A DNA stretch of 64,000 nucleotides from Marmoricola sp. (lineage in GTDB: Bacteria > Actinomycetota > Actinomycetes > Propionibacteriales > Nocardioidaceae), in assembly GCA_036676945.1 (NCBI GenBank), contig JAKFBZ010000027.1:1601-65600 (forward strand), in the 5' to 3' direction. Positions within the stretch are counted from its first letter, which is position 1. Every line of letters starts with the position of its first letter. Shown here in pieces: positions 186-48,423 of the stretch. Made by a program: the position numbers and the translations under genes. The notes under the pieces were generated by a model, which saw only the letters and a list, made by a program, of their open reading frames with translations, had not been told where the DNA came from and did no database searches.

Positions 186-193
186 ACGAGAAG

Positions 194-220: not shown

Positions 221-246
221 AGCCGGTGGTCGAGGCAGTCGGGACC

Positions 247-948
247 TCAGACGGCGCAGCCGTCCGGCCCGCAGGCGTCCGCTCCCCCGCCGACGAGATC
301 GAGCTGGGGGTGCGACTCCGACCACGCCTTCTCGAGGACCTGGGTGAAGACCTCGGCGGGCTGCGCGCCGGAGACGCCGTACTTGCGGTCGACGACGTAG
401 AACGGCACGCCGGTCGCACCGAGAGCTGCGGCCTCACGGATGTCGGCCTCGACCGCGTCGGCGTACTCCCGGCCGGCGAGGACCTCGTCGACGCGGGCGC
501 CGTCGAGTCCGGCCTCGACGGCGATCCGGCTCAGGGTGTCGTGGTCGGCGACGTTCTCGGTGTGGACGAAGTACGCCGCGAGCAGGGCCTCCTTCAGCCG
601 GCCCTGGAGCTCGGGCCCACCGGTCTCCAGCGCTAGGTGCAGGAGCCGGTGCGCGTCCACGGTGCTCACCCGCAGCGACGCGTGGTGGCGGAAGAGCAGG
701 CCTTCCTCGGCGGCCACGGCCTCGACGCGGTCGATCATCTGTTTGCCCGCCTCCGGGCCGCCGCCGTACTTGCGCCCCAGCGCTTCGGCGACCGTCTCGG
801 TCGGGACCGCGGGCGCGGACGGGTCGAGCTGGAAGGAGCGCCAGACGATCTCGACCTGGTGGTCGAAGGTGGCCAGGGCAGTCTCCAGACGCCGCTTGCC
901 GATGTAGCACCACGGGCAGACGACGTCACTCCAGATCTCGATACGCAT
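247..948 (-). CDS. DsbA/FrnE-family thiol-disulfide oxidoreductase
   Basis: N-terminal IEIWSDVVCPWCYIGKRRL with CPWC motif; C-terminal GVPF...SGAQ. Confidence 0.9.
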   Translation of the reverse strand: MRIEIWSDVVCPWCYIGKRRLETALATFDHQVEIVWRSFQLDPSAPAVPTETVAEALGRKYGGGPEAGKQMIDRVEAVAAEEGLLFRHHASLRVSTVDAHRLLHLALETGGPELQGRLKEALLAAYFVHTENVADHDTLSRIAVEAGLDGARVDEVLAGREYADAVEADIREAAALGATGVPFYVVDRKYGVSGAQPAEVFTQVLEKAWSESHPQLDLVGGGADACGPDGCAV

Positions 949-26814: not shown

Positions 26815-26939
26815 CGAAGGTCCCTACCCGCCTAACCACATAGGTCGCAAATCGTACCTAATCGTCGGAAATAGTAAGATCTTGTACTAAATAGGCTGAT
26901 TTTCCCCCATGCTGGTGGTTCACGGACTGGGGAGGGTCT

Positions 26940-28947
26940 ATGAGTTTCACCGTCGGCACCACGATGCGCGCCAGCACCGCCGGCTGGGCGGACCTGCTCG
27001 GCCCGCCGAGTGCGGAGAAAGCCCGCTCACGGCGGCTGGCCCACCTGGGCGGTGTCGCCGCCCTCACGGCCCTGGCCGGGTACATCACCTGGCGGCTCGC
27101 CTTCACCCTGCCCGCGGGCGGCCCGAACGCCGTCGCGGCGCTCATCCTGGTCGGCTTCGAGGCGATCCCCCTCATCGGCATGGGCTTCCGGCTGGTGACC
27201 CTGTGGAACATCGACTCCGCAGCGCCGGCGCCGGTCACCGAGGCACCGGGCGGCATGCGGGTCGCTGTCCTCATTCCGACCTATGACGAGCCCGCGGAGG
27301 TCATCGCCCCGACCATCGCCGCCGCCTGCGCACTCGAGCCCGCCCACGAGACCTGGGTGCTCGACGACGGGGAGCGCCCCTGGGTGGAGGAGATCTGCCG
27401 GGTGTACGGCGCCCGCTACGTCTGCCGGCCGGTCCACGACCACGCGAAGGCGGGCAACCTCAACCACGCGCTCGAACTGATGGAGGCCGAGGCTGCCGCA
27501 GGCGCCCCGGCCGTCGATCTCGTCGGCGTGCTGGACTGCGACCACGTTCCGCTGCCCGGTTTCCTCACCTCGACGCTCGGTTGGTTCGAGGACCCCGAGA
27601 TCGCCCTGGTGCAGGGGTCGCAGAGCTTCTACAACGCCGGCGCCTTCGACGACGACGGCGTCAACGGCGAACAGGGGCTGTTCTTCAACGTCCTGATGGC
27701 GGCGCGCAACCGGCCCGACGCCGGCCCCTTCTGGTGCGGTTCGACGGCCGTGCTGCGGACCCGGGCGCTCCGCGAGATCGGCGGCGTCGCGACCGACACC
27801 ATCGTCGAGGACATGCACACGACACTCGGCCTGCTCCGGACCGGGTGGCGCACGGCGTACCACCACCAGACCCTGGCCGTCGGCCTTGCCCCGTCCACCG
27901 CCGAGCAGTACCTCCTGCAACGGCGCCGCTGGGGCCTGGGAGCGATGCAGGTGCTGACCCGGGAGAAGCTCTGGGCGGCGAAGCGGTGGATGTCGTGGCG
28001 CAACTACTACGAGTACCTGACCGGGACGTTGTGGTGGCTCGAGGGCGCCGCCACCGTCCTCGTCCTGGCCGTGCCGGTCGTGCTCCTGGTCACCGGCGCA
28101 CAGACCTCCACCGCGCCGCCGCTGACCTTCACCGCGATCTTCGCCACGACGTTCGCCGTCCGGCTGTGGGGCGCCAAGCGCTTCTACCGCCATCAGCTCA
28201 GCTGGTCCAATGCGCTCGCGCTGCGGATCCTGAGGATCCCGGTCGGCCTGTCGTGCCTGTGGTGGCTGCTGACCCGCCGGACCCTAGAGTTCCAGGTCAC
28301 TCCGAAGGAAGGCACCGCGGAACGGACCCGGAGCAGGGTGCCGCGGGTCCTCGGCGTCCTGCTGGTCACTCTGGCGGCGATCGTCGCCTACAGCGCTGCC
28401 GGCCTGGCCGGAGTCGTTCCCTGGCGTGCGTCGCCCTCGGCCACGGTGGCCTCAGGGATCTGGTTGCTGATCGCCACGACCACGGTCGCCCTCGGGATGC
28501 GCCGGATCCGCGCTGCCGAGTTCGCCTCGTCGCGCCGCAACGCACACCGGTTCGCCGTCCAGGCCGTCGTCGCCGTCGAAGGCGTGGACGCAGAGCTGGT
28601 CGACATCTCGGTCGGCGGCCTTCGCGTCCGCCTCCCGGAGGACGCTGTGCCCGGCGGAGGCCTCGTCCATGTCGAACTGCCGGGAGCCGAACCGGTGAAG
28701 CTCGCGCTGGTGCGTTCCGGCACGGATGCCCGGATCTCCGACCGCCTGGTCTCGCTCCGGGTCGTCCAGGGCGACTGGGCAGCGATGCGGACCCTGTCGC
28801 AGTGGTTGTTCCACACGCCGGCCGGCGCGGTGACGAACCTGCCGTACGGCGTCCCGGCGGCTGCCTCCACGCAGCCCGCACCGAGTCTGTCGGTCCGGCA
28901 GGGCCGAGCCGCCTCCGCTCGCGTGCGGACCCGGGTAGCGGCCCTCC

Positions 28948-28955
<8 letters not shown>
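26940..28955 (+). CDS. BcsA/cellulose-synthase-like GT2 with C-terminal PilZ domain
   Basis: TYDE, LDDG, HAKAGNLN, LDCDH, FWCGS, EDMHT, QRRRW catalytic motifs; PilZ RNAHR…DISVGG. Confidence 0.88.
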
Positions 28956-33422
<4,467 letters not shown>

Positions 33423-34137: not shown

Positions 34138-34196
34138 AACCGGCCCGGAGCCCGGTGCGTTCCAGTAGTGGAAGCACCGCCGAGCAGAGAGTTCTC

Positions 34197-35036
34197 ATGT
34201 CCCCGCAGTCGCCGCGTCCCGCGGCAGTCCGTCCCCCCGTCCCGTCGACCCCGCGATCCGAGCCCGCGACGGCCGACCCAGAGTCCCGCAGCGGCTTGAG
34301 CCTGACCCAGATGGCGGCCAGTGCCGGAGCGGCCTCGTCAGCCGCGTTCGCCGCGTCCTACCTCGGCGTCGCCGGGACCATCATCGGCGCGGCGGTGGCC
34401 AGCGTGATCGCCACCGTGGCCACCACGATGTACTCCGCCTCACTGCACCGCAGCCGCGAGGCCGTACGCCGCCGGACCCTGCAGTTGGCGCCGCTCCCCT
34501 GGACCCCGGCGATCGCCCGCACCGCCGCGGTCACGCCGGGCGCGACCCGCGCTCCGGACACCGCGTCGATCGCGGACACCGCCACCCGCGTGCTGGCCCC
34601 GGTCCCCGTCGAGATCGCCCCCGAACCACCGCGAACCCTGGCCTCCGACCGGCCCGGCGTCCGCTGGGGACGGGTGCTCCCGGCCGCGGCCGCGGTCCTG
34701 GCGATCACCCTAGGCACGCTGACCGGCATCGAAGGCGCGCTCGGCAGACCGCTCTCCGCACTCTTCGGCGGATCCGACACCAGCGGGACCAGCCTGAGCA
34801 GCATCGCCGGCGCAGGCTCGGATGCCGGGACGGACCCGGTGCAGAAGGCCCCGAGCTCGCCCGAGCCGACTCCGCAGACCGAGCCGACCGCCGAGCCCAC
34901 GGCCGGACCGACCGGCGCCCCGACGCCGACGCCGTCCAGCGATCCGACCGACGAACCGTCCACGGAGCCGACCGACCCCGTCGAGACCCCGGACCCCACG
35001 CCGACACCGGAGCCGACGGCCACCGCGACCCCCTGA
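34197..35036 (+). CDS. Hypothetical membrane protein with Pro/Thr-rich extracellular tail
   Basis: Two N-terminal hydrophobic helices (SYLGVAGTIIGAAVASV), a third helix, then EPT/TP low-complexity C-terminus. Confidence 0.65.
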   Translation: MSPQSPRPAAVRPPVPSTPRSEPATADPESRSGLSLTQMAASAGAASSAAFAASYLGVAGTIIGAAVASVIATVATTMYSASLHRSREAVRRRTLQLAPLPWTPAIARTAAVTPGATRAPDTASIADTATRVLAPVPVEIAPEPPRTLASDRPGVRWGRVLPAAAAVLAITLGTLTGIEGALGRPLSALFGGSDTSGTSLSSIAGAGSDAGTDPVQKAPSSPEPTPQTEPTAEPTAGPTGAPTPTPSSDPTDEPSTEPTDPVETPDPTPTPEPTATATP

Positions 35037-35041
35037 GCACA

Positions 35042-35079
35042 GATCACGCCCCCCGTCCCGGCGGACGAGGGGCGTGATC
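35042..35079. terminator. Bidirectional hairpin terminator between convergent genes
   Basis: GATCACGCCCC-CCGTCC(CGGC)GGACG-A-GGGGCGTGATC stem. Confidence 0.7.
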
Positions 35080-35104: not shown

Positions 35105-38100
35105 TCAGAACAGATCGCCTTCGGCGATCGCGCCCTGGTAGTCGCCGGATCCTGCGAAGTGAGCGTGGTACGTCCCGTTCACGTCGATCAGCAGATCCTC
35201 ACCGTCCGTGCTCGGGTCGATGTTGATCACCGTGTAGTCGCACTCGGCCAGACCGCTGGCGTTGGTGACCGCACTGCACAGGTGGTACGCCGGCCGGCTG
35301 CCGAACGGCTTGTTGGTGAAGGAGATGGTGCGCCCCACCAACGGGTCGCCGTCCGCGTCGGTCAGTCGTGCCCGCACGTACCCGAAGCGCGTGCCCAGCG
35401 GCGAGCCCGCGACCGGCGAACCGGCCACCAGCGTCACCGCCTGCTGCGCGACCTGCTGGGTGTAGACCGGCGAGGTGCTGCCGGCGAACGCCGTGTCGCC
35501 CGAGTACGCCGCCGTGATCGAGTGGGCGCCGCCGCTGAGGCCGGGGACCACGAGCGTGGCGACCCGCTGGCCGCCCACCGTGCTGATCGCGGAGGTGCCC
35601 AGGACCGCGGCGCCGTCGGAGAAGGTCACCGAACCGGTCGGTTCGCCGACGGTCGGGAACTGCTCGTTCACCGTCGCTGTCAGCGTGACGCTGTCACCGA
35701 AGGTCGCCGGGTTGACCGAGGAGGCGACGCCGGTCGTGGTCGGGGCTCGGCCCACCGCGACGGAGGTGGTGTTCTCCGAGCCGGTGAAGTTGAAGTTCCC
35801 GACGTACTCGGCCCGGACGGTGTGGCTGCCCGGAGACAGCGTGCTGGTCACGAACGACGCTGTCGCGGCGTTGGTCCCGGCCGGGACGAGGCTGCTCGAG
35901 CCGAGAAGCTCGCCGCCCTCCCAGAAGCGGACCACGCCGGACGGCTTGCCGTTGGCCGGAGCCACCGCGTTGACCGTCACGTCGAAGGTCACCGGCGCGT
36001 TGTAGGCCGCCGTGGCCGGACCGGTGAGGCCCAGCGTCGTGGCGCCCTTGCTCGTGAACTGGCCGCTGCCCTGGTCGAGCAGACCGTCGCTCTTGAAGAA
36101 GTTGCCGTCGCCGCTGTACTGCGCCTTGACCTTGTAGGTACCGGGCGTCAGGGCGGAGAACGACGGGCTGGTCGCGACACCGTCCACGATCGGACGCTGA
36201 CCTCCGAGCGGCAGGCCGTTGATCGTGAACAGGACCGTGCCCGACGGGTCGCCGGCACCCGGCGCGACCGGGGTGACCGCCGCGGAGAACGTCGTCGGCT
36301 GGCCGGTCAGAGCCGGGTTGTTCGACGAGGTCACCACAGTCGAGGTCGACGCCTTCTGCACCGTCTGCGTCGAGGATGCGTTGCTGCCCAGGAAGCTGCC
36401 GTCCCCGCTGTAGGTCGCGGTGATCGCGTGCTGGCCGACCGCGAGGGCGGAGGTGGTGAGCGTGGCCTGGAAGGCCGAGTTCACCGGCACCGTGGCCAGG
36501 ACGCTGCTGCCGTCCTTGAACACGATGTCCCCCGTCGGGGCACCAGCACCCGGAGCCGTCACCGTCACCGAGGCGGTGAAGGTGACCGGCTGTCCGAAGA
36601 CCGAGCTCGGCGCGCTGCTGACCAGGGCGGTGCTGGTCGCCGCCTTGTTCACCTGCTGGCTCAGCGAGTCCTCGCTGCCGCTGAGGAACTCGGTGCTGTC
36701 GCTCAGGTACCGGGCGACGACCGCGTGCGTGCCGACCGGCAGGTTGCTCAGCGTCACTTCCGCGACGCCGCCGACCATGTCCGGGGTGGCCACGGTGACA
36801 CCGTTGACCCGGAACCGCACCGCGCCGGTGGGGTCACCGGACGAGGGCGCCTGCGGCGAGACCTCGGCACGGAAGGTGACTCCCTGGCCGAACACCGACG
36901 GGTTCTGCGAGGAGGTCAGCACGATGTCGGTCTGGGCCGGCGTCACGACCTGCGTGTACGCCGAGTCCGAACCCGCGTAGTTGGAGTTGCCGAGGTAGTT
37001 CGCGGTGACGTTGTGCGACCCCACGAGCATGCTCGTCGTCGGCGACGTCGCCTGGCCGTTGACCAGGGTGACCGGGCCGCCGAGCGGCTGACCGTCGACC
37101 TCGAACTGGACCTGACCCGCCGGCACGCCGGCGCCGGGCGCCACCGAGACCACGTTGGCCGTGTAGCTCAGCGGCTGACCCGACACGGCGGTCGCGTCCG
37201 AGGTGCTGAGGCTCAGGTTCGTGTCCGCGCGCTCGACACCGTGGGTGACGACCGCCGACGAACTGGGGTTGAAGTCGGCGTCACCGTTGTAGACGGCCTC
37301 CACGTCGTGGTTGCCGGCATTCAGGTTGCTGACCGTGAGCTGGGCGGTGTTGCCGCTCAGCGGGACCGCGGTGCCGAACGGCGCACCGTCGATGTTGAAC
37401 TGGACGCCGCCGGTCGGAGCGCCGACGCCGGGGGCGACCACGCCGATCGTCGCGGTGAAGGTCACCGCTTGGCCGAACTTGGTCGGCGTCGGTGCCGCGT
37501 TCAGCTGAGTGGTGGTGTCCGCCTTGACGGTCGTGGCGGTCCTGGTCGCAGCGGTGCTGGTCAGGAAGTTGGCGTCACCGCTGTAGACCGCACCGACCGT
37601 GTGCGTGCCGGTGCTCAGGGCGTCGGTGGCCGGCGTCGTGGCGACGCCGCTGCCGTTCACGGACACCGGAGCCCCGAAGTCCGATCCGTCCACGGTGAAC
37701 TGGACCGAACCGGTCGGCGTTCCGGTCCCGTTCGTCTTCGCGACAGTCGCCGTGAAGCTCTGGAACTCGCCGTGCACGATCGTCGCCGGCTGGGTGAGAG
37801 TCGTGGTGGTGGCGTTCTTGGTCACGTCGAACGAGCGGCTGATGCCGGTCGAGCCCCAGCGCGCCGAGCCCGCGTAGCCGATCGTCAGCGCGGCCGTTCG
37901 CGGCGGGCCGCTCACCGGCAGGTTGACGGTCACGTTGCCGGCCGCGTTGGTCACGCCGCTGGTGGAGCCGCCGCCGGTCAGCGCGAAGCTGATCGTGTGA
38001 CCGGCCAGGTTGGTGAGACCGGTCGGGGCCAGGTCGGCGATGTTGGCCGTGATCCCGCTGAGCGTGGTGTTCTGCGGGGCACTGAGCGGATCGTTGTAGG

Positions 38101-38506
38101 TGATCCCGAACCGGTTGTCGATCGTGACCGCACTCGTCGAGGTGTTGGTCGAGTTGCTGCAGGCGAGGAAGCCTGACCGGTTGACCTCCTCCACCCTGAC
38201 CGTGTAGCTGCCGTTGTCGTAGCTGTGGGTGTCGATCGAGACGGACTTGGCGCCGGTGCCGGTCTGCTCGTTGCTGAAGACGGTGGCGCCTCCGGAGTTG
38301 ACCAGGAAGAACCGGGTCCGGGCCGACGTACCGCTCAGGCACGCCGTCCCGTTGCTGGTGGCCCCCGAGGCCGAGAGCGTCGTGTTGCCACGGAGCACGG
38401 ACCCGTTGCCGGGAGCCGTGATCGCAGCCTCCGCGGGACCGGTGACCACCAGGACGAGGCCCAGGGCCGTGACGAGAGCCGCAAGGGCGGCGGTGATTCT
38501 GCGCAC
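35105..38506 (-). CDS. Giant secreted Ig-like repeat protein B (8 Big_3-type repeats)
   Basis: Signal peptide …GPAEA; repeats T.T.L.S..P…GQ.VTFTA.V…P.G.V.F..DG…H.V.A.Y.G. Start GTG 38506 (AAGGA RBS) or 38542. Confidence 0.85.
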   Translation of the reverse strand: MRRITAALAALVTALGLVLVVTGPAEAAITAPGNGSVLRGNTTLSASGATSNGTACLSGTSARTRFFLVNSGGATVFSNEQTGTGAKSVSIDTHSYDNGSYTVRVEEVNRSGFLACSNSTNTSTSAVTIDNRFGITYNDPLSAPQNTTLSGITANIADLAPTGLTNLAGHTISFALTGGGSTSGVTNAAGNVTVNLPVSGPPRTAALTIGYAGSARWGSTGISRSFDVTKNATTTTLTQPATIVHGEFQSFTATVAKTNGTGTPTGSVQFTVDGSDFGAPVSVNGSGVATTPATDALSTGTHTVGAVYSGDANFLTSTAATRTATTVKADTTTQLNAAPTPTKFGQAVTFTATIGVVAPGVGAPTGGVQFNIDGAPFGTAVPLSGNTAQLTVSNLNAGNHDVEAVYNGDADFNPSSSAVVTHGVERADTNLSLSTSDATAVSGQPLSYTANVVSVAPGAGVPAGQVQFEVDGQPLGGPVTLVNGQATSPTTSMLVGSHNVTANYLGNSNYAGSDSAYTQVVTPAQTDIVLTSSQNPSVFGQGVTFRAEVSPQAPSSGDPTGAVRFRVNGVTVATPDMVGGVAEVTLSNLPVGTHAVVARYLSDSTEFLSGSEDSLSQQVNKAATSTALVSSAPSSVFGQPVTFTASVTVTAPGAGAPTGDIVFKDGSSVLATVPVNSAFQATLTTSALAVGQHAITATYSGDGSFLGSNASSTQTVQKASTSTVVTSSNNPALTGQPTTFSAAVTPVAPGAGDPSGTVLFTINGLPLGGQRPIVDGVATSPSFSALTPGTYKVKAQYSGDGNFFKSDGLLDQGSGQFTSKGATTLGLTGPATAAYNAPVTFDVTVNAVAPANGKPSGVVRFWEGGELLGSSSLVPAGTNAATASFVTSTLSPGSHTVRAEYVGNFNFTGSENTTSVAVGRAPTTTGVASSVNPATFGDSVTLTATVNEQFPTVGEPTGSVTFSDGAAVLGTSAISTVGGQRVATLVVPGLSGGAHSITAAYSGDTAFAGSTSPVYTQQVAQQAVTLVAGSPVAGSPLGTRFGYVRARLTDADGDPLVGRTISFTNKPFGSRPAYHLCSAVTNASGLAECDYTVINIDPSTDGEDLLIDVNGTYHAHFAGSGDYQGAIAEGDLF

Positions 38507-38538
38507 GGGTGCTATTCCTTTTCTCTGGGTCTGCCGGG

Positions 38539-41500
38539 TCACTTGATCAGCGCGCCGTTGGACGTGGAACCGACGTAGTCGCCGCTGCCGGGGTAGGTCG
38601 CCTTGTAGCCGCCGGCCAGGATCAGCTGGATCAGCTTCGAGTCGGCGTCGCAGACGGCGAGCCCCGCCCCGTCGGTGACGATCGTGCAGGCGGTCACTCC
38701 GCCGATCGTGAACACCACCGGCTGGCCGGCCAACGGGCCGGACGCGGTGCTGAGCCTCGCCTTCAGCAGGCCGAGGTTGATCCCGAGAAGGGGGTTCAAC
38801 CTGACCAGGGCGGCCTCGGCGACCAGGCCGGTCGCCTTCTTGGCCACCGTGACCGTGACGACCGCGGAGGTGCTGGCGCCGAACGCGTCGGCCCCGTTGT
38901 AGACCGCCGTGACCGGGTGCGCACCACCGGAGAGCGCCGCCGTGCTGAACGTCGCCTTCCCGTTGCCGCCGACGGCCGCCAGCGGAACGGTGCCCAGCGG
39001 GGTGCTGCCGTCGATGAAGGTCACCGTGCCGGTCGGGGCGCCCAGGGCCCCCGAGCCCGGTGTCACCGTCGCGGTGAGCGTCACCGTGTCACCGAAGGTC
39101 GGCGACGTGGTGGAGGCGGCCAGCGCGGTGCTGGTGCCGATGACGCCGACGCTCTGCGTCAGCGTCCTGGTCTCGCCCAGGAAGTGCTCGTCACCGGAGT
39201 ACACCGCAGTCACGGTGTGCGCCCCCGGGGTCAGCGACGTCGTGCTCGGGCTGGTGGCCTCACCGTCGCCGTCGACGGCGACGGCACCGCCGAGCGCGAC
39301 ACCGTCGACCCGGAACTGGACGAACCCGCCCGGAGTGCCGGTCCCGGCCTGGTTGGACGCCACCGTTGCGTGGAAGTCCACGGACTGGCCGTGGTTGCTG
39401 TTCGCGTGGGAGGACGTCAGGCCCAGCGTCACCGAGGCGCTGTCGACCTGCTGGGTGACGGTGTCACCCGAGGCCGCGTACGCCGCGGAGGAGGCGAAAG
39501 CCGCGATCACCAGGTGGTCGCCCGGCTCCGGGGAGGAGACGGTCGGGCTCTCCGCGTCGCCGTTGGCGTCGACCGGGACCGGACCACCGATGTCGGTGCC
39601 GTCGATCGAGAACTGAACGGCACCCAGCGGCGCGCTGTCGTCGTCGGCTTCCACGTGAGCGGTGAAGGTCACCAGTTCGCCGAAGGTCGACGGGCTCTTC
39701 GACGACGTGACGGTCGTGGTGGTCGCGACGACCGCGGTCGCCGCGATCACGATCTGGTCGACCGCGTCGGCGGTGCTGCCGTTGTAGTCGGCGTCGCCGG
39801 CGTACTCGGCCGTGATCGCGTGCGTGCCGACAGGAAGGAACGAGGTGGTGAAGGTGGCCTGGCTGCTGCCGCCCGACGGTGCGAGCGCCGCCGACCCGAT
39901 CTCGTCACCGCCGGCGAAGAAGACCACCGTGCCGGTCGGCGAGCCGGAGCCCGGCGACTGCGCCGCGACGGTCGCGGTGACGGTGACCGCTTCCTCCTCG
40001 ACCTGCGGCGACGGCCCGGTGAGGACGACGTTGACGGTGTCGGCCTTCGCGACCGCCTGGGTCAGGCTGTCGGAGTCGGTCCTGAAGTTCGCGTCACCGC
40101 TGTAGGAGACCGCGACCGTGTGCGAACCGGCACCGAGGTCGGAGACCGGGTCGAAGGCGACCGCGCCACCGACCAGTGCGACCGGGGAGCCCACGTTGTT
40201 GCCGTCGATCACCAGCTGGGCGGTGCCGGACGGCACACCCGAGCCCGGGGCGACCGGCGCCACCGAGGCCGTGAAGTGGACGGTCTCGCCGGTCACCGTG
40301 GAGGTGTCCGAGCTCTGCAGGTCGACGACGGTGTCGGCCTTGGCGACCGTGGTGGCCGTCGGCGCGGAGGCGCTGGCGGCGTACACGTCGTCACCGGAGT
40401 AGTTCGCGGTGATCGAGTGCGAGCCGACCGGGATGTCGGTCAGGTCGAGCTCGGCGTTACCGGAACCGTCCAGTGCGGCGGTGCCCAGGATGCTCAGACC
40501 GTCGAAGAAGGTCACCGAGCCGGTGAGCGGGTCGGACCCGCTGACCTTGGTCACGTTGGCGGCAAGGTTCACGTTCTGGCCGTACACCGAGGAGGTCGGG
40601 GTGATGACCTGCGTGGTGGAGGTGCCGAGCAGCGGGTTGCGGACCCGGAACTGGACGGCGGGCGAGGCGCTGCCGCTGTGGTCGGCGCTGCCGAGGTACG
40701 TCGCGACCACGTTGTGGAAGCCCAGCGGCAGCGTGGAGATCGCGGCGCTGGTCGCCGAACCTCCGGAGAGGGCGATCGGCGAACCGAAGTCCGCGCCGTC
40801 GACCGAGAACTGGACCGAGCCGGCGGGGGTGCTGCCGCCGAAGGTCGGGGCGATGGTCGCGGTGAAGGTGACCGGGTCACCGAGGATCGCGACGCCCGGG
40901 TTCGCGACCACGGTGCTCGTCGTCGGGATCGTCGTGACGGTGAAGCCGGCGCTGGTGGAGGCGGCCTCGAGGTCGGCTGCTCCGGCGAACGAGGCCGAGA
41001 TCGTCGTCGAGCGCGGCGCCGCGTTGACCGGGATCGTCGCGGAGGCGACACCGGCTGCGTCGGTGGTCGCGTTGACCGTGGCACCCCCGCCGAGGGTGAA
41101 GGTCACGGTGCGACCGGCTGCGTTGGCCTGGTCGGCCAGGTCGTTGAGCTGGGCGCTCACCACGGCCGTACCGGTCTGCGGGCCGGCGATCGCACCGGTG
41201 TAGGCGATCGAGGAGCAGTCCTTGGCGCTGACCACGATGGTGGTCGCACCGATTCCACCGCCTCCGGTGAGGAAGACGCCGTAGTTGCCGCGCGAAGGCT
41301 GCGCGCCGCCACGGGCGAGGCCGTCGCTGACGCTCGGGGCGGTCACGTTCACGGTGTAGGCACCGTTCGAGCCGGTGACCGTGGTGAAGGTCTGACCGGA
41401 CCCGGGGCTCACCTGCGAGGTGTCCACCCGGGCGGTGACGGTCTGTCCGGCCGAGCCGCCGACGATGTTGCCGGAGATGGCCACGTTGCCGCCGGCGCAC

Positions 41501-42444
41501 GTGTACGACGGCGTGCCGGTGGCGGTGATCAGGGTGCCGCCGGAGGTGTTCGCCGCGGTCATGGTGCGGTTCAGCGTGACGGCGCCGCCGTCGAGCGGCA
41601 GGACGAGGGTCTCCTTGACCTGGTTCTTGAACTGCGGCGACCAGTAGGAGTCGTCCGACATCGACGCGTCGGCGTTCTGGCTGAAGACCCGCTTGACCGG
41701 GAGGGCGCCGTTGCCCATCGCGTTGACCGTGGTCGAGGTCGTGTTCGCCGGGGCGTCGAAGTGGAGCGTGCCGTCGAACGGCGAGGCACCGGTGCCGCCG
41801 AGCGAGCCGGCGTCGTAAGTGAACCCGCCGGTGTAGCGGACGTCGGTGAGGGTGTGCCAGTTGTCGCCGTTGTTCAGCGGGAAGTCGTGGACCTTCCAGC
41901 TCGGGTTCGGGGTGAGGTGCAGCTCGATGTCCGCGACGATGTTCGTCGAGATGATCGAGACCGTCGCCCGGGCGGTCAGGTGCTGGAACTGGTTCTCCTG
42001 GAGCAGCGCCAGGTCCGACGTACGGACGTAGCGGGTACCGCTCACCGTGCCGCCGAAGTTGCCGAGGCTGGCGTTGCCGACGCCGTCCACGGCGACCGAG
42101 CCGCTGCCACCGGTGATGGTGCCGCTGATGTTCAGCTTGTAGGCGTCGTGACCGCCGAAGTCCTCGCGACCCACGACCGAGTACGTGACCGTCTCGTTGA
42201 TCGTGACGTCGGTGCCTTCGGCCTGGTAACGGAACGAGGTGTTGCCGTAGGTCCAGGAGTTGCCGGTCTGCCACACAGCGACGTCGTCGCCGGTCGCCTG
42301 GACGGCGACCGCCGGCGAGCCGGCGAAGGCCGTCAGACCGGCCGCGAACATCGCGAGCACAGTGGCCAGGATCAAGCGGGAGCGCGTACGCCGCCCTGCC
42401 TGTCCGGTACGACGAACTCCGACATCGGATCCGCGAACACGCAT
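38539..42444 (-). CDS. Giant secreted Ig-like repeat protein A (7 Big_3-type repeats, beta-rich N-terminal domain)
   Basis: Signal peptide …SPAVA; ~250-aa non-Ig N-terminal domain; repeats as in the downstream paralogue. Confidence 0.85.
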   Translation of the reverse strand: MRVRGSDVGVRRTGQAGRRTRSRLILATVLAMFAAGLTAFAGSPAVAVQATGDDVAVWQTGNSWTYGNTSFRYQAEGTDVTINETVTYSVVGREDFGGHDAYKLNISGTITGGSGSVAVDGVGNASLGNFGGTVSGTRYVRTSDLALLQENQFQHLTARATVSIISTNIVADIELHLTPNPSWKVHDFPLNNGDNWHTLTDVRYTGGFTYDAGSLGGTGASPFDGTLHFDAPANTTSTTVNAMGNGALPVKRVFSQNADASMSDDSYWSPQFKNQVKETLVLPLDGGAVTLNRTMTAANTSGGTLITATGTPSYTCAGGNVAISGNIVGGSAGQTVTARVDTSQVSPGSGQTFTTVTGSNGAYTVNVTAPSVSDGLARGGAQPSRGNYGVFLTGGGGIGATTIVVSAKDCSSIAYTGAIAGPQTGTAVVSAQLNDLADQANAAGRTVTFTLGGGATVNATTDAAGVASATIPVNAAPRSTTISASFAGAADLEAASTSAGFTVTTIPTTSTVVANPGVAILGDPVTFTATIAPTFGGSTPAGSVQFSVDGADFGSPIALSGGSATSAAISTLPLGFHNVVATYLGSADHSGSASPAVQFRVRNPLLGTSTTQVITPTSSVYGQNVNLAANVTKVSGSDPLTGSVTFFDGLSILGTAALDGSGNAELDLTDIPVGSHSITANYSGDDVYAASASAPTATTVAKADTVVDLQSSDTSTVTGETVHFTASVAPVAPGSGVPSGTAQLVIDGNNVGSPVALVGGAVAFDPVSDLGAGSHTVAVSYSGDANFRTDSDSLTQAVAKADTVNVVLTGPSPQVEEEAVTVTATVAAQSPGSGSPTGTVVFFAGGDEIGSAALAPSGGSSQATFTTSFLPVGTHAITAEYAGDADYNGSTADAVDQIVIAATAVVATTTTVTSSKSPSTFGELVTFTAHVEADDDSAPLGAVQFSIDGTDIGGPVPVDANGDAESPTVSSPEPGDHLVIAAFASSAAYAASGDTVTQQVDSASVTLGLTSSHANSNHGQSVDFHATVASNQAGTGTPGGFVQFRVDGVALGGAVAVDGDGEATSPSTTSLTPGAHTVTAVYSGDEHFLGETRTLTQSVGVIGTSTALAASTTSPTFGDTVTLTATVTPGSGALGAPTGTVTFIDGSTPLGTVPLAAVGGNGKATFSTAALSGGAHPVTAVYNGADAFGASTSAVVTVTVAKKATGLVAEAALVRLNPLLGINLGLLKARLSTASGPLAGQPVVFTIGGVTACTIVTDGAGLAVCDADSKLIQLILAGGYKATYPGSGDYVGSTSNGALIK

Positions 42445-42691
42445 TCCAGAACCCCTTCAACGGCGTTGCCCACGGACAAGGACATCCGTGGCGAGCGAGT
42501 TCTAGCAGGCCTCAAGTTGCGACGACAATCACTTTGGTCAACTTGTTGAACGCGTGAGTTCCGACCTTTCGCCGCCTCATTTCGGGCATAGCAAACGAAG
42601 TCGGACCGGGGTTACGCACGGGTAGAACCCGTTCTCGAATTCGAGGGCCGTAAAGAAAGTTGCGACTGGGCCAAGACCGGTCTACTCTCTC

Positions 42692-42718
42692 GATGAAACG
42701 AAACCGTTTCGTTTCATC
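42692..42718. promoter_or_regulatory. TetR operator: 27-bp palindrome with perfect 13-bp arms
   Basis: GATGAAACGAAAC-C-GTTTCGTTTCATC immediately before the RBS of a tetR-MFS operon. Confidence 0.8.
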
Positions 42719-42741
42719 CGTCAGAGGAGGAGCCCGGTCGC

Positions 42742-43425
42742 GTGATGATGAGCGTGCTGCACACCAAGCACCGCCCCCGCATCGAAGGCGAGCGCGAGGA
42801 CGAGATCCTCGACGCCTGCGTCGAGCTCCTGATGGAGGTCGGCTACGACCGGCTCACGATGGACGCCGTCGCCAAACAGGCACGCGCCAGCAAGGCGACC
42901 CTCTACCGCCGTTGGGAGAGCAAGGCCAGCCTCGTCGTCGAGGCGCTCGCACGGGCCAAGTCGGCACCGAGTGTCGACGACCACGACACCGGAGCTCTGC
43001 GCTCGGATCTGCTGGCCACGTTCTGCGGCCACGAAGGGTTGAGCGGCGCCGCGACCGGGATCCTCGGGTCGGTCCTCACCGCGGTGAGCACGGACCCCGA
43101 GTTCGCCGACGAGTTCCGGGCCAAGTTCATCGCCCCGAAGATCGCCGTGAGCCGGACGATCTACGAACGGGCCATCGCCCGGGGGGAGATCGCCGCGGAC
43201 GTCGACATCACGCTGATCGCCCCTGCGCTCGCCGGCATCCTCCTGCACCGCGCGTTCATCCTCGGCGAGACCATCGACGACGCGAGCATCGAGCGCGTCA
43301 TCGACAACGTGATCCTCCCCGCCGTACGCCACCCCGCGTGCGCCGGCGACAGCACTTCCGACAACACCCCGTCCCCGAAGAAGGCCGACACCAAGGCCGT
43401 CACCACAGCAAGGAAGAATTCATGA
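42742..43425 (+). CDS. TetR/AcrR-family regulator
   Basis: GYDRLTMDAVAKQARASKATLYRRWESK HTH; DTGALRSDL C-terminal domain. Start 42742-42748. Confidence 0.92.
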   Translation: MMMSVLHTKHRPRIEGEREDEILDACVELLMEVGYDRLTMDAVAKQARASKATLYRRWESKASLVVEALARAKSAPSVDDHDTGALRSDLLATFCGHEGLSGAATGILGSVLTAVSTDPEFADEFRAKFIAPKIAVSRTIYERAIARGEIAADVDITLIAPALAGILLHRAFILGETIDDASIERVIDNVILPAVRHPACAGDSTSDNTPSPKKADTKAVTTARKNS

Positions 43426-45056
43426 CCGACATCGCAGAGGCCAAGGCGGACCCCACCGGGCGCGCCGAAGGCCACACGCATCTGGGCTGGGCCCTGGTGC
43501 TCATCTCGGTGGCGCAGCTGATGGTGGTGCTCGACAGCACCATCGCCAACATCGCGCTCCCCTACATCCAGCAAGACCTGGGCATCTCCGCAGCGAACCT
43601 GCAGTGGGTCGTCACCGGCTACGCGCTCGCCTTCGGCGGTCTGCTCCTCCTCGGCGGTCGGCTCGGTGACCTGTACGGCCGCCGCCTCGTCTTCATGATC
43701 GGTGTCGCGATCTTCGCGATCGCCTCCGGTCTCGGCGGCCTCGCCCAGAACGAGCTGATGCTGCTCGGTTCCCGGGGACTCCAGGGTCTCGGCGCCGCAC
43801 TGGCCGCGCCTACCGCCCTCGCGCTGATCACCACGAACTTCCCGGCCGGTGCCCAGCGCAACCGCGCCTTCTCCGTGTACGCCGCGATGTCGGGCGTCGG
43901 TGCCGCGGTCGGCCTGGTCCTCGGCGGCTGGCTGACCGGCCTGACCCCGGAGGTCTTCGGCCTGGACGTCGAGGGCTGGCGGCTGACCTTCCTGATCAAC
44001 GTCCCGATCGGCATCGCGGCGGCATACTTCGCCCCCAAGCTGCTGGCCGAGTCCGAGACCCACCCGGGAGAGCTCGACCTGCCCGGCGCCTTCACCGGCA
44101 CCCTCGGCCTGGTCTCGCTGGTCTACGGCATCTCCCGGGCCGGCGGCGAGGCGGGTTGGGACGACCCGTGGACGATCACCTTCATGGCCGTCGGGGTCGG
44201 GCTGCTGGCCCTGTTCGTCGCGATCGAGCGTCGCGTCGAGCACCCGCTGCTGCCGCTGCGGATCCTGACCAACCGCACCCGGGCGACGGCGTTCGTGACG
44301 ATGATGATCGTCCCGGCCGCGATGTTCGCGATGTTCTACTTCCTCTCCCAGTTCGTCCAGAACGTGATGGGTTACAGCCCGCTGCACACGGGTTTCGCGT
44401 TCCTGCCCTTCAGCGTCGGCATCGTCGCCGGTGCGGCGATCTCGTCGAAGCTGCTGACCAGGATGGACCCGCGGATCCTGGCCGGCGCCGGCACGATCTT
44501 CGCCGGCTTCGCGCTGCTGAACTTCTCGCGGCTCTCGATCGACGATTCACCGAAGAACATCCTGGCGACGGCGTTCGGCGACGGCTACCTGGGTACCGGG
44601 GTCAACTACTGGGTCGACCTGTTCCCGTTCATCATCCTGATGGCGTTCGGCATGGGCCTGACCTTCGTGCCGATGACACTGACCGCCGTGTACGGCGTCG
44701 ACCACCGCGACTCGGGGGTCGCCTCGGGTGTGCTGAACACCATGCAGCAGGTGGGTGGCGCGCTCGGTCTGGCGACGCTGTCGACCGTTGCGGTGCAGGC
44801 GATCCAGGACAAGAGCGCATCGCTCGGTGCGGCCGTGATGGCGATCGCGCCCGGCGGTGGTGGAGCCGACCCGGAGGCCGCGGCGTCGCTGAAGAACGTG
44901 ATCGGTCAGGCGGCCTTCACCGAAGGAAGCACGCATGCCTTCATGACCGGCGCGTTCATGATCTGGACGGCGAGCCTGATCGTGTGGATGTTCCTCAACG
45001 TCAAGCACGAGGACCTCGCCACCGATGACGCGCCCGACGGCGTGCACATCGGCTGA
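43422..45056 (+). CDS. MFS drug:H+ antiporter (DHA2, 14-TMS)
   Basis: LMVVLDSTIANIALP, GGRLGDLYGRR motif A, RGLQGLGAAL. ATG at 43422 overlaps the tetR stop. Confidence 0.92.
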   Translation: MTDIAEAKADPTGRAEGHTHLGWALVLISVAQLMVVLDSTIANIALPYIQQDLGISAANLQWVVTGYALAFGGLLLLGGRLGDLYGRRLVFMIGVAIFAIASGLGGLAQNELMLLGSRGLQGLGAALAAPTALALITTNFPAGAQRNRAFSVYAAMSGVGAAVGLVLGGWLTGLTPEVFGLDVEGWRLTFLINVPIGIAAAYFAPKLLAESETHPGELDLPGAFTGTLGLVSLVYGISRAGGEAGWDDPWTITFMAVGVGLLALFVAIERRVEHPLLPLRILTNRTRATAFVTMMIVPAAMFAMFYFLSQFVQNVMGYSPLHTGFAFLPFSVGIVAGAAISSKLLTRMDPRILAGAGTIFAGFALLNFSRLSIDDSPKNILATAFGDGYLGTGVNYWVDLFPFIILMAFGMGLTFVPMTLTAVYGVDHRDSGVASGVLNTMQQVGGALGLATLSTVAVQAIQDKSASLGAAVMAIAPGGGGADPEAAASLKNVIGQAAFTEGSTHAFMTGAFMIWTASLIVWMFLNVKHEDLATDDAPDGVHIG

Positions 45057-45059
45057 GAG

Positions 45060-46079
45060 TCAGTCACCGCTCAACCGTGAGGCGCTGGCCGTGAGAACGG
45101 CCAGCGCCTCACGTGCGTAACGGGGCGTCGCGCCGGCCAGGCCGCAGGCCGGGGTGAGGACGAGCTGCCCGGCGACCTCGTCGAGGCCGAAGCCGAGCAT
45201 GTCCAGCAGGCGTGAGACCCGGTCGACGACCTGCTTCACGGTCGGCGGCGCACTCGGGTCCAGAGCCGGCACGACGCCCAGCAGGACCCGCTCCCCCGCG
45301 TCGATGGCCTGACCCAGCTCCTCGTACTGCTCGGCGGCGAGGACACCGAGGTCGACCGAGATCCCGGCCGCACCGGCTCCGCGCAGCAACCCGATCGGGA
45401 CGTCCGCGGCGCAGCAGTGCGCCATCGGGGTCGCACCCGCCGCCGTGATCGCGTCGAAGACCCATTCCAGAGCCGCCGACGCCTTCGGTGCGTCGACCGA
45501 GCGGTGCCGGCCGAAACCGGACGCCGTCGGCACCTGCGCCGCCAGCACCGCCGGTAGAGCCGGTTCGTCGACCTGCACGAGCAGGTCGGCCCCGGGGAGC
45601 CGCCGCCGGACATCGGCGATGTGATCGCCCAGTCCGGCCGCGAGCGCCTGCGCGAGCTCCCGGCGCGCGCCGACATCCGCCAGCACCCGGTCACCGCGGG
45701 GGCGCTCGACGGTCGCGGCCAGGGTCCACGGCCCGGTGACCTGGATCTTGAACTCGCCGGCGGCGACAGTTCGCCCGGTCTGGGCGAGCTCCTCGACGGT
45801 GTCGAGGTCCTGGGCCAGGAGCGACCGCGCGCGGCGGTGGTCCACACCCGGCGCGTCGGTCAGCCGCCAACCCGCCGGTTGCAGGTCGAACCCGAGCTCG
45901 GCGACGACGGCCAGGGCCCGCCCCGTCATCCCCGCCGTCGCTCCGCGAGCGGGGAGCTCCGGGACGTACGGCAGATCGGGGAGCTCGCCGAGGACGACCC
46001 GGACGGCTTCGGCGACGTCGTCGCCGGGCATCGACCCGATGCCGCTGGCGATGGTCCGGCCTTGCACGGGAGTGTCCAC
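45060..46079 (-). CDS. MetE C-terminal-domain-like (truncated cobalamin-independent methionine synthase family) protein
   Basis: K.QVTGPWTL, QVDEP, HCC and TPACGL zinc-ligand motifs; no N-terminal folate domain. Confidence 0.78.
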   Translation of the reverse strand: MDTPVQGRTIASGIGSMPGDDVAEAVRVVLGELPDLPYVPELPARGATAGMTGRALAVVAELGFDLQPAGWRLTDAPGVDHRRARSLLAQDLDTVEELAQTGRTVAAGEFKIQVTGPWTLAATVERPRGDRVLADVGARRELAQALAAGLGDHIADVRRRLPGADLLVQVDEPALPAVLAAQVPTASGFGRHRSVDAPKASAALEWVFDAITAAGATPMAHCCAADVPIGLLRGAGAAGISVDLGVLAAEQYEELGQAIDAGERVLLGVVPALDPSAPPTVKQVVDRVSRLLDMLGFGLDEVAGQLVLTPACGLAGATPRYAREALAVLTASASRLSGD

Positions 46080-46100
46080 GTCGAAACCCTATGCGCCGAC

Positions 46101-46126
46101 CCATCCGTCCTGCGCGCGGCTCCGAA
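46101..46126 (+). promoter_or_regulatory. SigK promoter CCATCC-N15-CCGAA
   Basis: Exact match to the M. tuberculosis SigK consensus, 8 nt before ATG 46135. Confidence 0.8.
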
Positions 46127-46134
46127 GCACTGCC

Positions 46135-47679
46135 ATGAGACGGCCCGCACGTCCGACCCTGCTGACCCTCGCCTACGCGCTCTCCGGCGTCCTGGCGGCG
46201 TGCTTCGGCATGGCGGCTGCGCATCTGGTCGCCTCGCTCGGCAACCCTGCCGCGTCCCCGGTCTACGCGGTCGGCAGCACCGTGATCGACGCGACGCCGA
46301 CCCCGATGAAGGAGTGGGCGATCCGCACCTTCGGGACCGCCGACAAGGCGATCCTGATCGGGAACGTGCTGCTCTTCACGCTGTTGTTCGCTGCGGTGGC
46401 GGGGATCATCGCGCGACGCCGGCTGGCCCTGGCCAACGGCCTTCTCGTCTTCCTGGTCGTGCTCGCAGGCGCTGCGGCGCTGCGCCGGCCGGATGCATCT
46501 CTCGGCGACGCCGTGCCCGCACTCGTCGCCGCCGTACTCGCACCGGTCACGCTCTCGTGGCTGGTACGGGCGCTGCGAACGCGGGGGGCGAACGCAGCGA
46601 CTCCCTCGAGCAGCGCGCCCGGCAGCTCGCGCCGAGGGTTCCTGATCGGCTCCGGCCTCGTCGTGCTCGGCGGCGTGGCGATGGCCGGAGCCGGTCAGTG
46701 GATCGTGAAGGCACGGTCGAAGATCTCCGACATCGTGCTGCCGCAGGCCGCGCAGCCGCTGCCGCCGCTGGCCGAGGGCCTGGACGCGCAGTTCTCCGGG
46801 ATCTCGTCCTTCCAGACCTCGAACCGGGACTTCTACCGCGTCGACACCAAGCTGGCCGTCCCGCTGGTCAACCAGAACTCGTGGCGGCTGCGCATCGACG
46901 GCATGGTCGAGCGGGAGCTCTCCTTCACCTACGACGACCTCTTCGACATGGCGGTCGAGGAGCACGACATCACCCTCACCTGCGTCTCCAACACGGTCGG
47001 CGGCAAACTGGTCGGCGCGGCGCGCTGGCTCGGCGTACCGGTGAAGACCCTGCTGGACATGGCCGGGTACTCGGACAAGGCCGACCAGGTGCTCTCGGTC
47101 GACGTCGACGGCTTCAAGATCAGTACGCCGATCCAGGCGCTGACCGACGACCGTCCCGCACTGGTCGCGATCGGCATGAACGGGAAGGTGCTCCCCCGCG
47201 AGCACGGCTTCCCGGCACGGCTGGTCACCCCCGGCCTCTACGGCTTCGTCGGCGCCACCAAGTGGCTGCAGCGACTGACCGTGACGACGTACGCCGAGGA
47301 CGAGGCCTACTGGACCAAGCGGGACTGGGCAACCGATGCCCCGATCAAGCTCTCCAGCCGGATCGACACCCCCAGGCCGCTCGCGAACGTGAAGGCCGGC
47401 CGGCGCGCGATCGGCGGAGTCGCCTGGGCGCAGCAGAACGGCGTCGCCCAGGTCGAGGTCCGCATCGACGGCGGGCCCTGGCAGCAGGCCACCCTCGGAC
47501 CCGACGCCGGTGTCGACTACTGGCGGCAGTGGTACCTGTCCTGGGACGCCGAACCGGGCAGCCACATGATCGCGGTCCGGGCCACCGGCAAGGACGGCAC
47601 GGTGCAGACCTCGGTGCGGGCGAACTCCTTCCCCGACGGGTCCAGCGGCATCCAGGAGATCGTCGTCACCGCTTCCTGA
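46135..47679 (+). CDS. Polytopic molybdopterin-dependent oxidoreductase (sulfite oxidase/MsrP family)
   Basis: Four TM helices, internal SRRGFL Tat motif plus fifth TM, FYRVDT, TLTCVSN Mo-Cys, HGFPARL, PGLYG, KWL. Confidence 0.88.
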   Translation: MRRPARPTLLTLAYALSGVLAACFGMAAAHLVASLGNPAASPVYAVGSTVIDATPTPMKEWAIRTFGTADKAILIGNVLLFTLLFAAVAGIIARRRLALANGLLVFLVVLAGAAALRRPDASLGDAVPALVAAVLAPVTLSWLVRALRTRGANAATPSSSAPGSSRRGFLIGSGLVVLGGVAMAGAGQWIVKARSKISDIVLPQAAQPLPPLAEGLDAQFSGISSFQTSNRDFYRVDTKLAVPLVNQNSWRLRIDGMVERELSFTYDDLFDMAVEEHDITLTCVSNTVGGKLVGAARWLGVPVKTLLDMAGYSDKADQVLSVDVDGFKISTPIQALTDDRPALVAIGMNGKVLPREHGFPARLVTPGLYGFVGATKWLQRLTVTTYAEDEAYWTKRDWATDAPIKLSSRIDTPRPLANVKAGRRAIGGVAWAQQNGVAQVEVRIDGGPWQQATLGPDAGVDYWRQWYLSWDAEPGSHMIAVRATGKDGTVQTSVRANSFPDGSSGIQEIVVTAS

Positions 47680-47716
47680 CCGGCTCCGGATCTCCGGAAA
47701 TCCCTGCCCGTCCAGG

Positions 47717-47742
47717 CAATCCGCTTCCCGCCCGGCACCGAA
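47717..47742 (+). promoter_or_regulatory. Second SigK promoter CAATCC-N15-CCGAA
   Basis: One mismatch to consensus with exact spacing, upstream of the fasciclin-sigK-rskA operon. Confidence 0.72.
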
Positions 47743-47802
47743 TCACTGCCGACAGCGCACCACGGACAAGCACCACCACAACCCGTCGAAAGGCTCAATC
47801 TC

Positions 47803-48423
47803 ATGACCACCACCCTTCTGCGCCGCACCGGGGCCGTCGCCGCGGTTTCCCTCGCCCTCTCGTTCGGCCTCGCGGCCTGCGGCAGTGACGACTCCGACAA
47901 CGACGCCACCGCGACCGCGGACGAGACCATGTCGACCGACGCCGGTGCCGGCGCCGAGACCTTCGGCGCGGGCTGCAAGTTCATCCCGGCCGACGGCAAG
48001 GGCTCGTTCAACGGCATGGCCACCGACCCGGTCGCCACCGCCGCCAGCAACAACCCGCTGCTCAAGACGCTCGTCGCCGCCGTCGGCGTCGCAGGCCTGG
48101 GTGACACGCTCAACTCGGCCGACGCACTGACCGTGTTCGCGCCGACCGACGACGCGTTCGCGAAGATCCCGAAGGCAGACCTGGACGCCGTCCTGGCCGA
48201 CAAGGCGCTGCTCACCAAGATCCTGACCCACCACGTGGTGGCCGGCAAGCTCAACCCGGAAGACGTCATCGGTGAGCACGAGACCCTCGCGGGCGACACG
48301 ATCAACGTGACCGGCACTGTTCCGGAGCTCAAGTCGGAGAACGCGGCCGTGCTGTGCGGGAACATCCCGACCGCCAACGCCACGGTCTACGTCATCGACA
48401 CTGTCATGATGCCGGCGGCCTGA
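47803..48423 (+). CDS. Fasciclin-domain lipoprotein (MPT83/MPT70-like)
   Basis: Lipobox LAAC; TVFAPTDDAF, ILTHHVV, GNIPTANATVYVIDTV. Confidence 0.92.
   Translation: MTTTLLRRTGAVAAVSLALSFGLAACGSDDSDNDATATADETMSTDAGAGAETFGAGCKFIPADGKGSFNGMATDPVATAASNNPLLKTLVAAVGVAGLGDTLNSADALTVFAPTDDAFAKIPKADLDAVLADKALLTKILTHHVVAGKLNPEDVIGEHETLAGDTINVTGTVPELKSENAAVLCGNIPTANATVYVIDTVMMPAA

Follow-up and report, generated by a model that had tools for sequence, protein, structure and literature searches.

Do two giant immunoglobulin (Ig)-repeat proteins, encoded side by side and lacking a surface anchor of any known type, work as one extracellular structure or as two? The question is raised by gene A (38539..42444) and gene B (35105..38542), both on the minus strand of a 64,000-nucleotide stretch of DNA from the soil actinobacterium Marmoricola sp. 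(contig JAKFBZ010000027.1 of assembly GCA_036676945.1), which we call the window. Protein A (1301 aa, ATG start) contains, in order, a signal peptide, a 12-strand β head, a Big_7-like Ig domain with a cysteine bridge (Cys-Ig), a Big_1-like linker Ig domain, seven Big_3_5 repeats and a Big_1-like C-terminal (CT) domain. Protein B contains a signal peptide, a Big_7-like Cys-Ig, a Big_1-like Ig, eight Big_3_5 repeats and a CT domain.

We tentatively favour a reading in which A and B make up a two-gene unit that is inherited as one and would be transcribed as one; its Sec-secreted rods would work together as a length-matched extracellular fibril. The reading rests on tight linkage, co-occurrence, mobility of the unit, fixed architecture, a shared C-terminal module and co-varying lengths. 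In the mechanism that we propose, A and B would jointly form a single fibril. The C-terminal module common to both would mark the proximal end and serve either in the pairing of A with B or in non-covalent docking to the same envelope component. The head of A would be the distal, ligand-binding end, roughly level with the Big_7-like domain of B.

Architecture of A and B

The window has a GC content of about 70%, and the frame-specific GC3 of 0.88-0.93 in genes A and B shows the codon bias of real genes. The Pfam model PF16640 (Big_3_5) finds seven repeats in A (E 1.9e-118, 387.7 bits) and eight in B (E 9.5e-128, 417.5 bits), against a cut-off of 35.5 bits; the repeat borders were taken from a local repeat hidden Markov model (HMM). 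These results confirm the two large paralogous Ig-stalk open reading frames (ORFs) of the original prediction, an earlier model-made note on the same DNA.

In A, the Sec-type signal peptide (42304..42444, aa 1-47, predicted cleavage AVA/VQ) is followed by the head (41545..42303, aa 48-300), an undescribed all-β barrel-like domain. Next come the Cys-Ig (41200..41544, aa ~301-415, with Cys316 and Cys410), which is Big_7-like and homologous to the N-terminal domain of B, and the linker Ig (40915..41199, aa ~416-510), which is invasin/Big_1-like and has a weak match to Pfam Invasin_D3 (E 6e-4). The stalk of seven repeats extends over 38863..40893 (aa 518-1194). The CT domain (38542..38844, aa 1201-1301, with Cys1253 and Cys1265) closes the protein with the residues NGALIK.

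Residues of B are numbered on its longest form of 1145 aa, except for the signal peptide, which is counted from a second start at 38506 (38426..38506, predicted cleavage AEA/AI). Behind it lie the N-terminal Cys-bridged Ig (38093..38425, aa 40-150, with Cys68 and Cys128), which is Big_7-like, the Big_1-like linker Ig (37799..38092, aa ~151-248) and the stalk of eight repeats (35468..37783, aa 254-1025). The CT domain of B (35108..35446, aa 1033-1145, with Cys1089 and Cys1101) is homologous to that of A, shows a weak Big_1 match and ends in EGDLF.

The two tips are more alike than was first thought. The first 200 mature residues of B align to residues ~300-505 of A (30% identity, E 3e-11). Because the N-terminal domain and linker of B are homologous to this part of A, the sole real difference between the tips, judged from the alignment, is the extra module of A at residues 48-300 (about 250 aa). 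Distinct N-terminal domains had been claimed for the two proteins; the claim holds for the extra head of A but not for the N-terminal domain of B. We classify the Cys-Ig domains of both proteins as divergent Big_7.

The terminal domains noted earlier are homologous to each other as well. The CT domains (about 100 aa each) share 36% identity (E 2e-14) and have a Cys pair in common. A profile built from 20 C-terminal domains matches a Big_1 protein (5ldy) as well as domain D1 of Yersinia invasin (1cwv, E 1.1e-6), and the CT is therefore most likely an invasin/Big_1-type Ig domain. The CT HMM also matches the linker Ig of A in several orthologues. Both the linker Ig and the CT match the invasin/Big_1 models of Pfam below the Pfam cut-offs, and the main stalk is Big_3_5. 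A search of PDB sequences with B returned no match. Word-indexed homologue searches, which proved insensitive here, returned nothing for the N-terminal region of B, whose homologues are present in related loci, and only two fragments for the CT profile, whose homologues clearly exist.

By module count, A has 10 Ig-type domains behind its head, and B has 11. Mature A has a mass of 123 kDa and a pI of 4.3, and mature B a mass of 110 kDa and a pI of 4.8. Both are acidic, rod-like proteins of 11 β-rich modules each, with a probable length of a few tens of nanometres.

The genes abut, as had been noted. The TGA stop of A (38539-38541) overlaps GTG 38542, from which the longest ORF of B starts. The second GTG at 38506 would yield a protein of 1133 aa; the Shine-Dalgarno motif AAAGGA stands just before it, and the spacer between A and B is then 32 nt. 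Orthologues of B open with (M/V)RR(L/M)(I/T)AA. On account of these N-termini and the upstream AAAGGA, GTG 38506 is the most likely predicted start of B. Depending on the start, the gap or overlap between the two genes is 4-32 nt.

Co-inheritance of the pair

Taking one genome per species, our scan gave 37 loci, nearly all of them from Nocardioidaceae (Nocardioides, Marmoricola, Pimelobacter, Aeromicrobium), together with a few other actinobacterial metagenome-assembled genomes (MAGs). Marmoricola sp. RAF53 matches best, with 78% identity across the head. In all 30 of the 30 loci with a complete A, a B-type gene lies directly behind A on the same strand. The same order is seen in L001, L039, L043-L045, L047 and L048, metagenomic contigs included. 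The distance from the stop of A to the first domain of B has a median of 107 nt (27 loci), which corresponds to a spacer of about 15-30 nt. The unit is also present in cultured strains of Nocardioides, Pimelobacter and Aeromicrobium, among them N. marmoriginsengisoli Gsoil 097, N. silvaticus, P. simplex 3E and A. terrae.

The loci fall into at least three genomic neighbourhoods. About 9-11 loci resemble the window, running from TetR and MFS genes to ligA; about 16 adjoin prfB; and L001 is different again. The recurrence of the same pair in at least three settings suggests that it moves as a unit. Two candidates for a conserved third partner were rejected. The upstream ORFs kept in 15-18 loci are antisense shadows of prfB, and the membrane ORF at 34155..35036 occurs only in the 9 loci of the window type.

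The repeat arrays are equally constant. Every complete orthologue has exactly seven repeats in A and eight in B, and a given repeat best matches the repeat at the same position in other genomes in 69-97% of comparisons, with a median identity of 60% between orthologous repeats versus 40% between paralogous ones. This positional orthology and the fixed counts indicate that the arrays are ancient and fixed and have undergone neither concerted evolution nor drift in copy number. A and B do not carry collinear copies of one repeat series, from which it follows that the duplication giving rise to A and B is ancient and that both copies have been kept.

The original prediction envisaged exchangeable tips on conserved stalks, for which the orthologues give no support. 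Compared with the window, 31 of them have a median identity of 58% in the head, 52-55% in the stalks, 48% in the CT of A and 36% in the CT of B. Rates of change differ little from part to part and are lowest in the head, and none of the orthologues has another head in its place. At greater depth, the same head is found on stalks of CARDB, PKD and InlB-B repeats.

A shortened version of the pair is found in a distant lineage. In L037, an Actinomycetes MAG, and in L040/L041, a B-like gene of 548 aa lies directly ahead of an A-like gene of 815 aa, and the gene order is reversed. The short B-like protein has Big_7 followed by Big_1-like domains, about 5 Ig domains in all, and the L040 copy scores above the Pfam cut-off for Big_7. 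The short A-like protein is a head with about 5 Ig domains. Between the two partners (L037, L040), the C-terminal 120 residues are 61% identical (E 8e-53), and this module is unrelated to the CT of the long type and has no Pfam match. Partner lengths thus co-vary, with a head plus 10 Ig domains against 11 in the long pair and a head plus about 5 against about 5 in the short pair. In both architecture classes the partners share a C-terminal module and have co-varying lengths. We regard this module, common to the partners in two independent architecture classes, as a candidate attachment or pairing device. The constant pairing in the 30 evaluable loci, the several neighbourhoods and the short pair, which is still a pair in reversed order, support the earlier view of a two-component system.

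We notice several further features at individual loci. In L001 (10001..13892), a frameshift divides the A orthologue into ORFs 636 aa and 674/777 aa long, and B is intact; the split may be an assembly error or a pseudogene, on a MAG contig of 439 kb. Two Nocardioides genomes have a third gene directly behind B (L032 17131..18567, L036 16973..18532), which encodes a short paralogue with a signal peptide, three Big_3_5 repeats and the same CT, ending in ARGNLVG. Small secreted Cys-containing proteins lie one on each side of the short pair in L040 (4750..5421 and 3..419); they resemble each other (YLYF.P..G.PF..SL) and have no Pfam match.

These data allow a second reading, in which A and B are independent secreted adhesin-like or binding proteins, tandem paralogues that are adjacent by descent and form no complex. 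Tandem paralogues of Ig-repeat proteins are common, A and B share a module plan, and the third, shorter paralogue in two loci suggests a family that expands in place. However, the pair is kept in 30 of 30 loci and in at least three genomic contexts, and the distant lineage has kept it through a reversal of the order and a joint shortening of the two partners. The partners retain the same C-terminal module in both classes, and the non-collinear repeats speak for an ancient duplication of which both copies were retained. We judge this second reading possible but on the unlikely side. If A and B are independent released proteins, the finding shrinks to two more uncharacterised Ig-repeat proteins.

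Several points nevertheless weigh against a joint fibril. The genes may be adjacent because a tandem duplication has been passed on vertically. The co-variation in length is drawn from two architecture classes only, and one A-like gene alone, the short P0017 (701 aa) in L042, stands near a contig end with no visible partner. As regards expression and co-transcription, no RNA-seq runs holding the locus were found; DNA sequencing runs place it in soil metagenomes. For the head, a role as ligand-binding tip is argued from analogy only, since neither a binding site nor a known relative can be recognised. Beside these points, we notice that P0017 in L042 is followed by an ORF of 36 aa (7379..7486), which by eye resembles the start of an IS3-family transposase orfA.

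Export, retention and the head module

At the N-terminus of each protein, a basic n-region and a hydrophobic core lead up to an AxA site (SPAVA/VQATG in A, GPAEA/AITAP in B), read directly from the translations and supported by conservation among orthologues. The AxA site is kept in all orthologues, just ahead of the first folded domain, and the motif AxA/[VAT]QA.G.[DE]V is conserved in 31 orthologues of A. The signal peptides that had been proposed for both proteins are thus borne out. There is no Cys in either signal peptide, hence no lipobox. A Tat signal was considered and rejected, as the orthologues have no conserved S/T-R-R-x-F-L-K motif.

At the other end, A and B finish in a folded Ig domain, and most sampled orthologues of A carry two hydrophobic residues and a lysine directly after the Ig fold. 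Motif and tail scans of A, B and the sampled orthologues found no LPXTG or LAxTG followed by a hydrophobic stretch and a basic tail, and A and B have no transmembrane tail. The sortase motif TLxTC is absent from the supported ORFs of the window and from a set of 1090 ORFs that covers 38 related loci and the surroundings of the pair in the window. The earlier observation that LPXTG, a transmembrane tail, a lipobox and a nearby sortase are all missing holds up, and so does its view of the anchor as one of no known type, with the attachment route left unassigned. Its suggestion of polymerisation finds no support: no sortase or pilin signal is found and the C-terminal profile matches an invasin/Big_1 Ig domain. 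In two MAG loci, a protein of about 1000 aa with Big_9, cadherin-like and PKD domains is encoded just upstream of A (L026 1811..4813, L038 6693..9596), and it bears a classical sorting signal composed of LAATG, a hydrophobic stretch and RRRR. In these lineages at least, sortase anchoring serves the neighbour protein but not A or B.

Proteins of this kind frequently lack a recognised anchor. A survey of fibrillar adhesins found many such proteins without a known anchor, of which only 20% had a transmembrane helix (PMC8286594). In Gram-positive phyla, the adhesive domain is N-terminal and the stalk C-terminal, also in proteins without a sortase motif (PMC8286594). Since many predicted fibrillar adhesin-like proteins have no recognisable anchor (PMC8286594), their retention is a practical question, for which the A-B locus, as a strictly conserved unit of fixed geometry, offers a clean study case. 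Surface location and adhesion of A and B are putative.

The lack of any known type of anchor fits a third reading, in which A and B are not cell-bound but are released as an extracellular matrix or biofilm scaffold that binds exopolysaccharide or environmental polymers. In the window, GT2+PilZ synthase-like and GGDEF-EAL genes lie 4-8 kb away, and Big_7-type Ig domains are also found in polysaccharide lyases. The prfB-adjacent loci and L001, however, have contexts that differ from that of the window, and the C-terminal membrane anchors of distant head proteins point to a role of the head at the cell surface. We consider a released scaffold distinctly unlikely.

Searches of Pfam, NCBIfam and PDB sequences returned no match to the head (A 48-300). 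When 1.84 billion representatives were searched exhaustively with a profile, only 119 head clusters, defined at 50% identity, came up at E <= 1e-3, with 19 at E <= 1e-30; throughout these 119 clusters the head is almost always placed directly behind the signal peptide. With an alignment of 48 sequences, AlphaFold2 gave a model with a predicted local distance difference test score (pLDDT) of 94.6 and a predicted template modelling score (pTM) of 0.90, displaying 12 long antiparallel strands. This alignment was needed, as one of 7 sequences reached a pLDDT of only 52. In a Foldseek search, no chain of the PDB reached E <= 1e-3; the closest structures, at TM-scores of 0.33-0.48, were 12-strand autotransporter β-domains, YmcC-like proteins of Bacteroides and the barrel-like DUF1849 protein (6ntr). 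The same search against viral structure models returned nothing. On the basis of the predicted model, we propose that the head represents a new family of soluble domains with a barrel-like fold of 12 strands. NCBIfam reports an OmpL47-type barrel in five distant head-bearing proteins. We considered this assignment for the head itself and rejected it, as neither the head in the window nor six distant members rescanned singly gave a match.

Proteins of the close head subfamily are about 1290-1360 aa long, with 7-8 Big_3_5 repeats and a CT, and one member is found in an Acidimicrobiales MAG. Distant head proteins have no Big_3_5; their stalks are built of CARDB, PKD, Big_7 or InlB-B-type repeats, and at the C-terminus many have either a PGF-CTERM-like tail or an acidic tail behind a transmembrane segment. 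They include an archaeal protein, MFW5907771.1, named "InlB B-repeat-containing protein" and annotated as Ca. Natronoplasma / Aenigmatarchaeota (profile E down to 4e-23). Because the head of these distant proteins follows the signal peptide, and many have a transmembrane or PGF-CTERM-like tail at the C-terminus, we speculate that the head of A is likewise distal. With about 119 clusters, a confident fold and a range that covers Actinomycetota and at least one archaeon, the head is a new domain family worth curating and solving.

The barrel-like fold brings up a fourth reading, namely that A is an inverse-autotransporter-like protein, with the Ig chain as the exported passenger of a 12-strand barrel that is embedded in a membrane or some outer layer. 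A barrel followed by an Ig array, invasin/Big_1-like domains included, mirrors intimin and invasin; the CT profile matches invasin; and Foldseek pairs the head with the autotransporter β-domains 1uyn, 3qq2, 2qom and 8bo2 at probabilities up to 0.99. Yet these matches have TM-scores of only 0.33-0.45 and none at E <= 1e-3, and the best matches also include the crystallised barrel-like DUF1849 protein and Bacteroides barrels of the lipoprotein type. B has no barrel and is otherwise the same as A. The Actinomycetota and archaeal hosts are not known to carry an outer membrane of the BAM type. Two points make it unlikely that the barrel is embedded in a membrane: the hosts are monoderm Actinomycetota (Nocardioidaceae and others) with, in addition, at least one archaeon, and the anchor of the distant relatives is at the other end of the protein, the C-terminus. 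Taken as a whole, the inverse-autotransporter reading is highly improbable.

That an atypical sorting signal makes A and B substrates of a sortase, as polymerised pilus subunits or as anchored wall proteins, is barely conceivable, for although they are elongated Ig-repeat proteins of a Gram-positive phylum and the Big_9/cadherin-like neighbour in L026 and L038 has an LAxTG signal, A, B and the sampled orthologues have no sorting signal, their usual ending is the hydrophobic pair and lysine described above, and the TLxTC scan was negative.

Returning to the joint fibril, its most ambitious form would be an obligate, length-matched heterodimeric surface fibril of an undescribed kind. A dedicated C-terminal Ig module would hold it on a monoderm envelope without a sortase, lipid or transmembrane anchor, and it would display an ancient 12-strand β-barrel head common to Actinomycetota and at least some Archaea. 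We consider this form speculative and rather unlikely. If it were true, it would imply a new attachment and assembly route as well as a new ligand-binding domain family.

Genomic setting and comparison with known systems

The flanks define A and B as an isolated two-gene unit, with an intergenic region and a divergent TetR gene on one side and a hairpin and a convergent ORF on the other. Upstream of A, about 300 nt (42445..42741) separate it from the TetR-family gene and are presumed to contain the promoter and leader of the unit, a role that we infer only. A GAAGGGG motif resembling a Shine-Dalgarno site stands about 10 nt ahead of the ATG of A (42444). Scans of the upstream region for the sigma-70 consensus and against Rfam gave no match, and scans for regulatory RNAs and tRNAs found none. 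Just past the stop of B, between the convergent genes, a GC-rich hairpin of 17 bp on the minus strand (35042..35079) is a probable terminator of the unit; it has a dG of -45 kcal/mol and a z of -4.9, and none of 200 shuffles folds as well. A strong hairpin is found only after B.

The divergent TetR-family regulator (42742..43425, plus strand) has TetR_N and TetR_C_11 domains and adjoins the pair in 11 loci. It is followed by a gene for an MFS exporter-like membrane protein (~43430..45056, plus strand), called from reading its translation only. Further along, a molybdopterin-binding oxidoreductase-domain protein (45736..47679, plus strand) is directly followed by a fasciclin-domain protein (47680..48423, plus strand). 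Convergent to B, the ORF at 34155..35036 (plus strand, 293 aa) has one or two hydrophobic segments, a Pro/Thr/Glu-rich tail and no Pfam family; it is kept at the same position in 9 related loci, in the window-type context only. Beyond it lie an α/β-hydrolase gene and then ligA. At a distance of 4-8 kb from the pair, a family 2 glycosyltransferase (GT2) with a C-terminal PilZ domain (26895..28955, plus strand) is of the BcsA-like type of polysaccharide synthase gated by cyclic di-GMP (c-di-GMP). Its gene overlaps the start of that for a GGDEF-EAL protein (28948..31353, plus strand), and the two resemble a c-di-GMP-controlled exopolysaccharide module.

We found no literature on the A-B pair or on Big_3_5 proteins of Nocardioidaceae. 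The pair can be compared with its nearest known counterparts. Distant head proteins such as MFW5907771.1 have a homologous head after the signal peptide and then a β-sandwich stalk, as A does, but they differ in the repeats of that stalk and, in many cases, in their membrane-spanning or PGF-CTERM-like tail. The best structural neighbours of the head are DUF1849 (6ntr), the YmcC-like BF2203 (3fzx) and BDI_3050 (4fvs), with Foldseek probabilities of 0.93-0.99. At TM-scores of 0.33-0.48 and identities of 8-11%, however, these are stand-alone proteins of diderms, annotated without a function, and not heads of Ig stalks. Invasin and intimin resemble the pair in that the linker Ig and CT match invasin/Big_1 profiles and that a predicted 12-strand β module precedes an Ig array. 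In contrast, the main stalk of A and B is Big_3_5 and not Big_1, the tip has no C-type lectin, and the head reaches a TM-score of at most 0.45 to autotransporter barrels.

There is also a likeness to the fibrillar adhesins of Gram-positive bacteria as defined by Monzon et al. 2021 (PMC8286594). What the pair shares with them is a rod-like plan, export by a Sec signal, a long tandem Ig stalk and, at the N-terminus, a head that is not made of repeats. A and B have no sorting signal or other known surface anchor, but such anchorlessness is common in that survey too. The differences lie elsewhere. The head of A belongs to no recognised adhesive family, and B has no non-Ig head at all. The repeat number of A and B is fixed and positionally orthologous instead of variable, and the gene of A is obligately paired with that of a head-less, length-matched partner. 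This comparison suggests that the A-B pair is a variant within the fibrillar-adhesin kind, in which the obligate length-matched pairing and the head are new.

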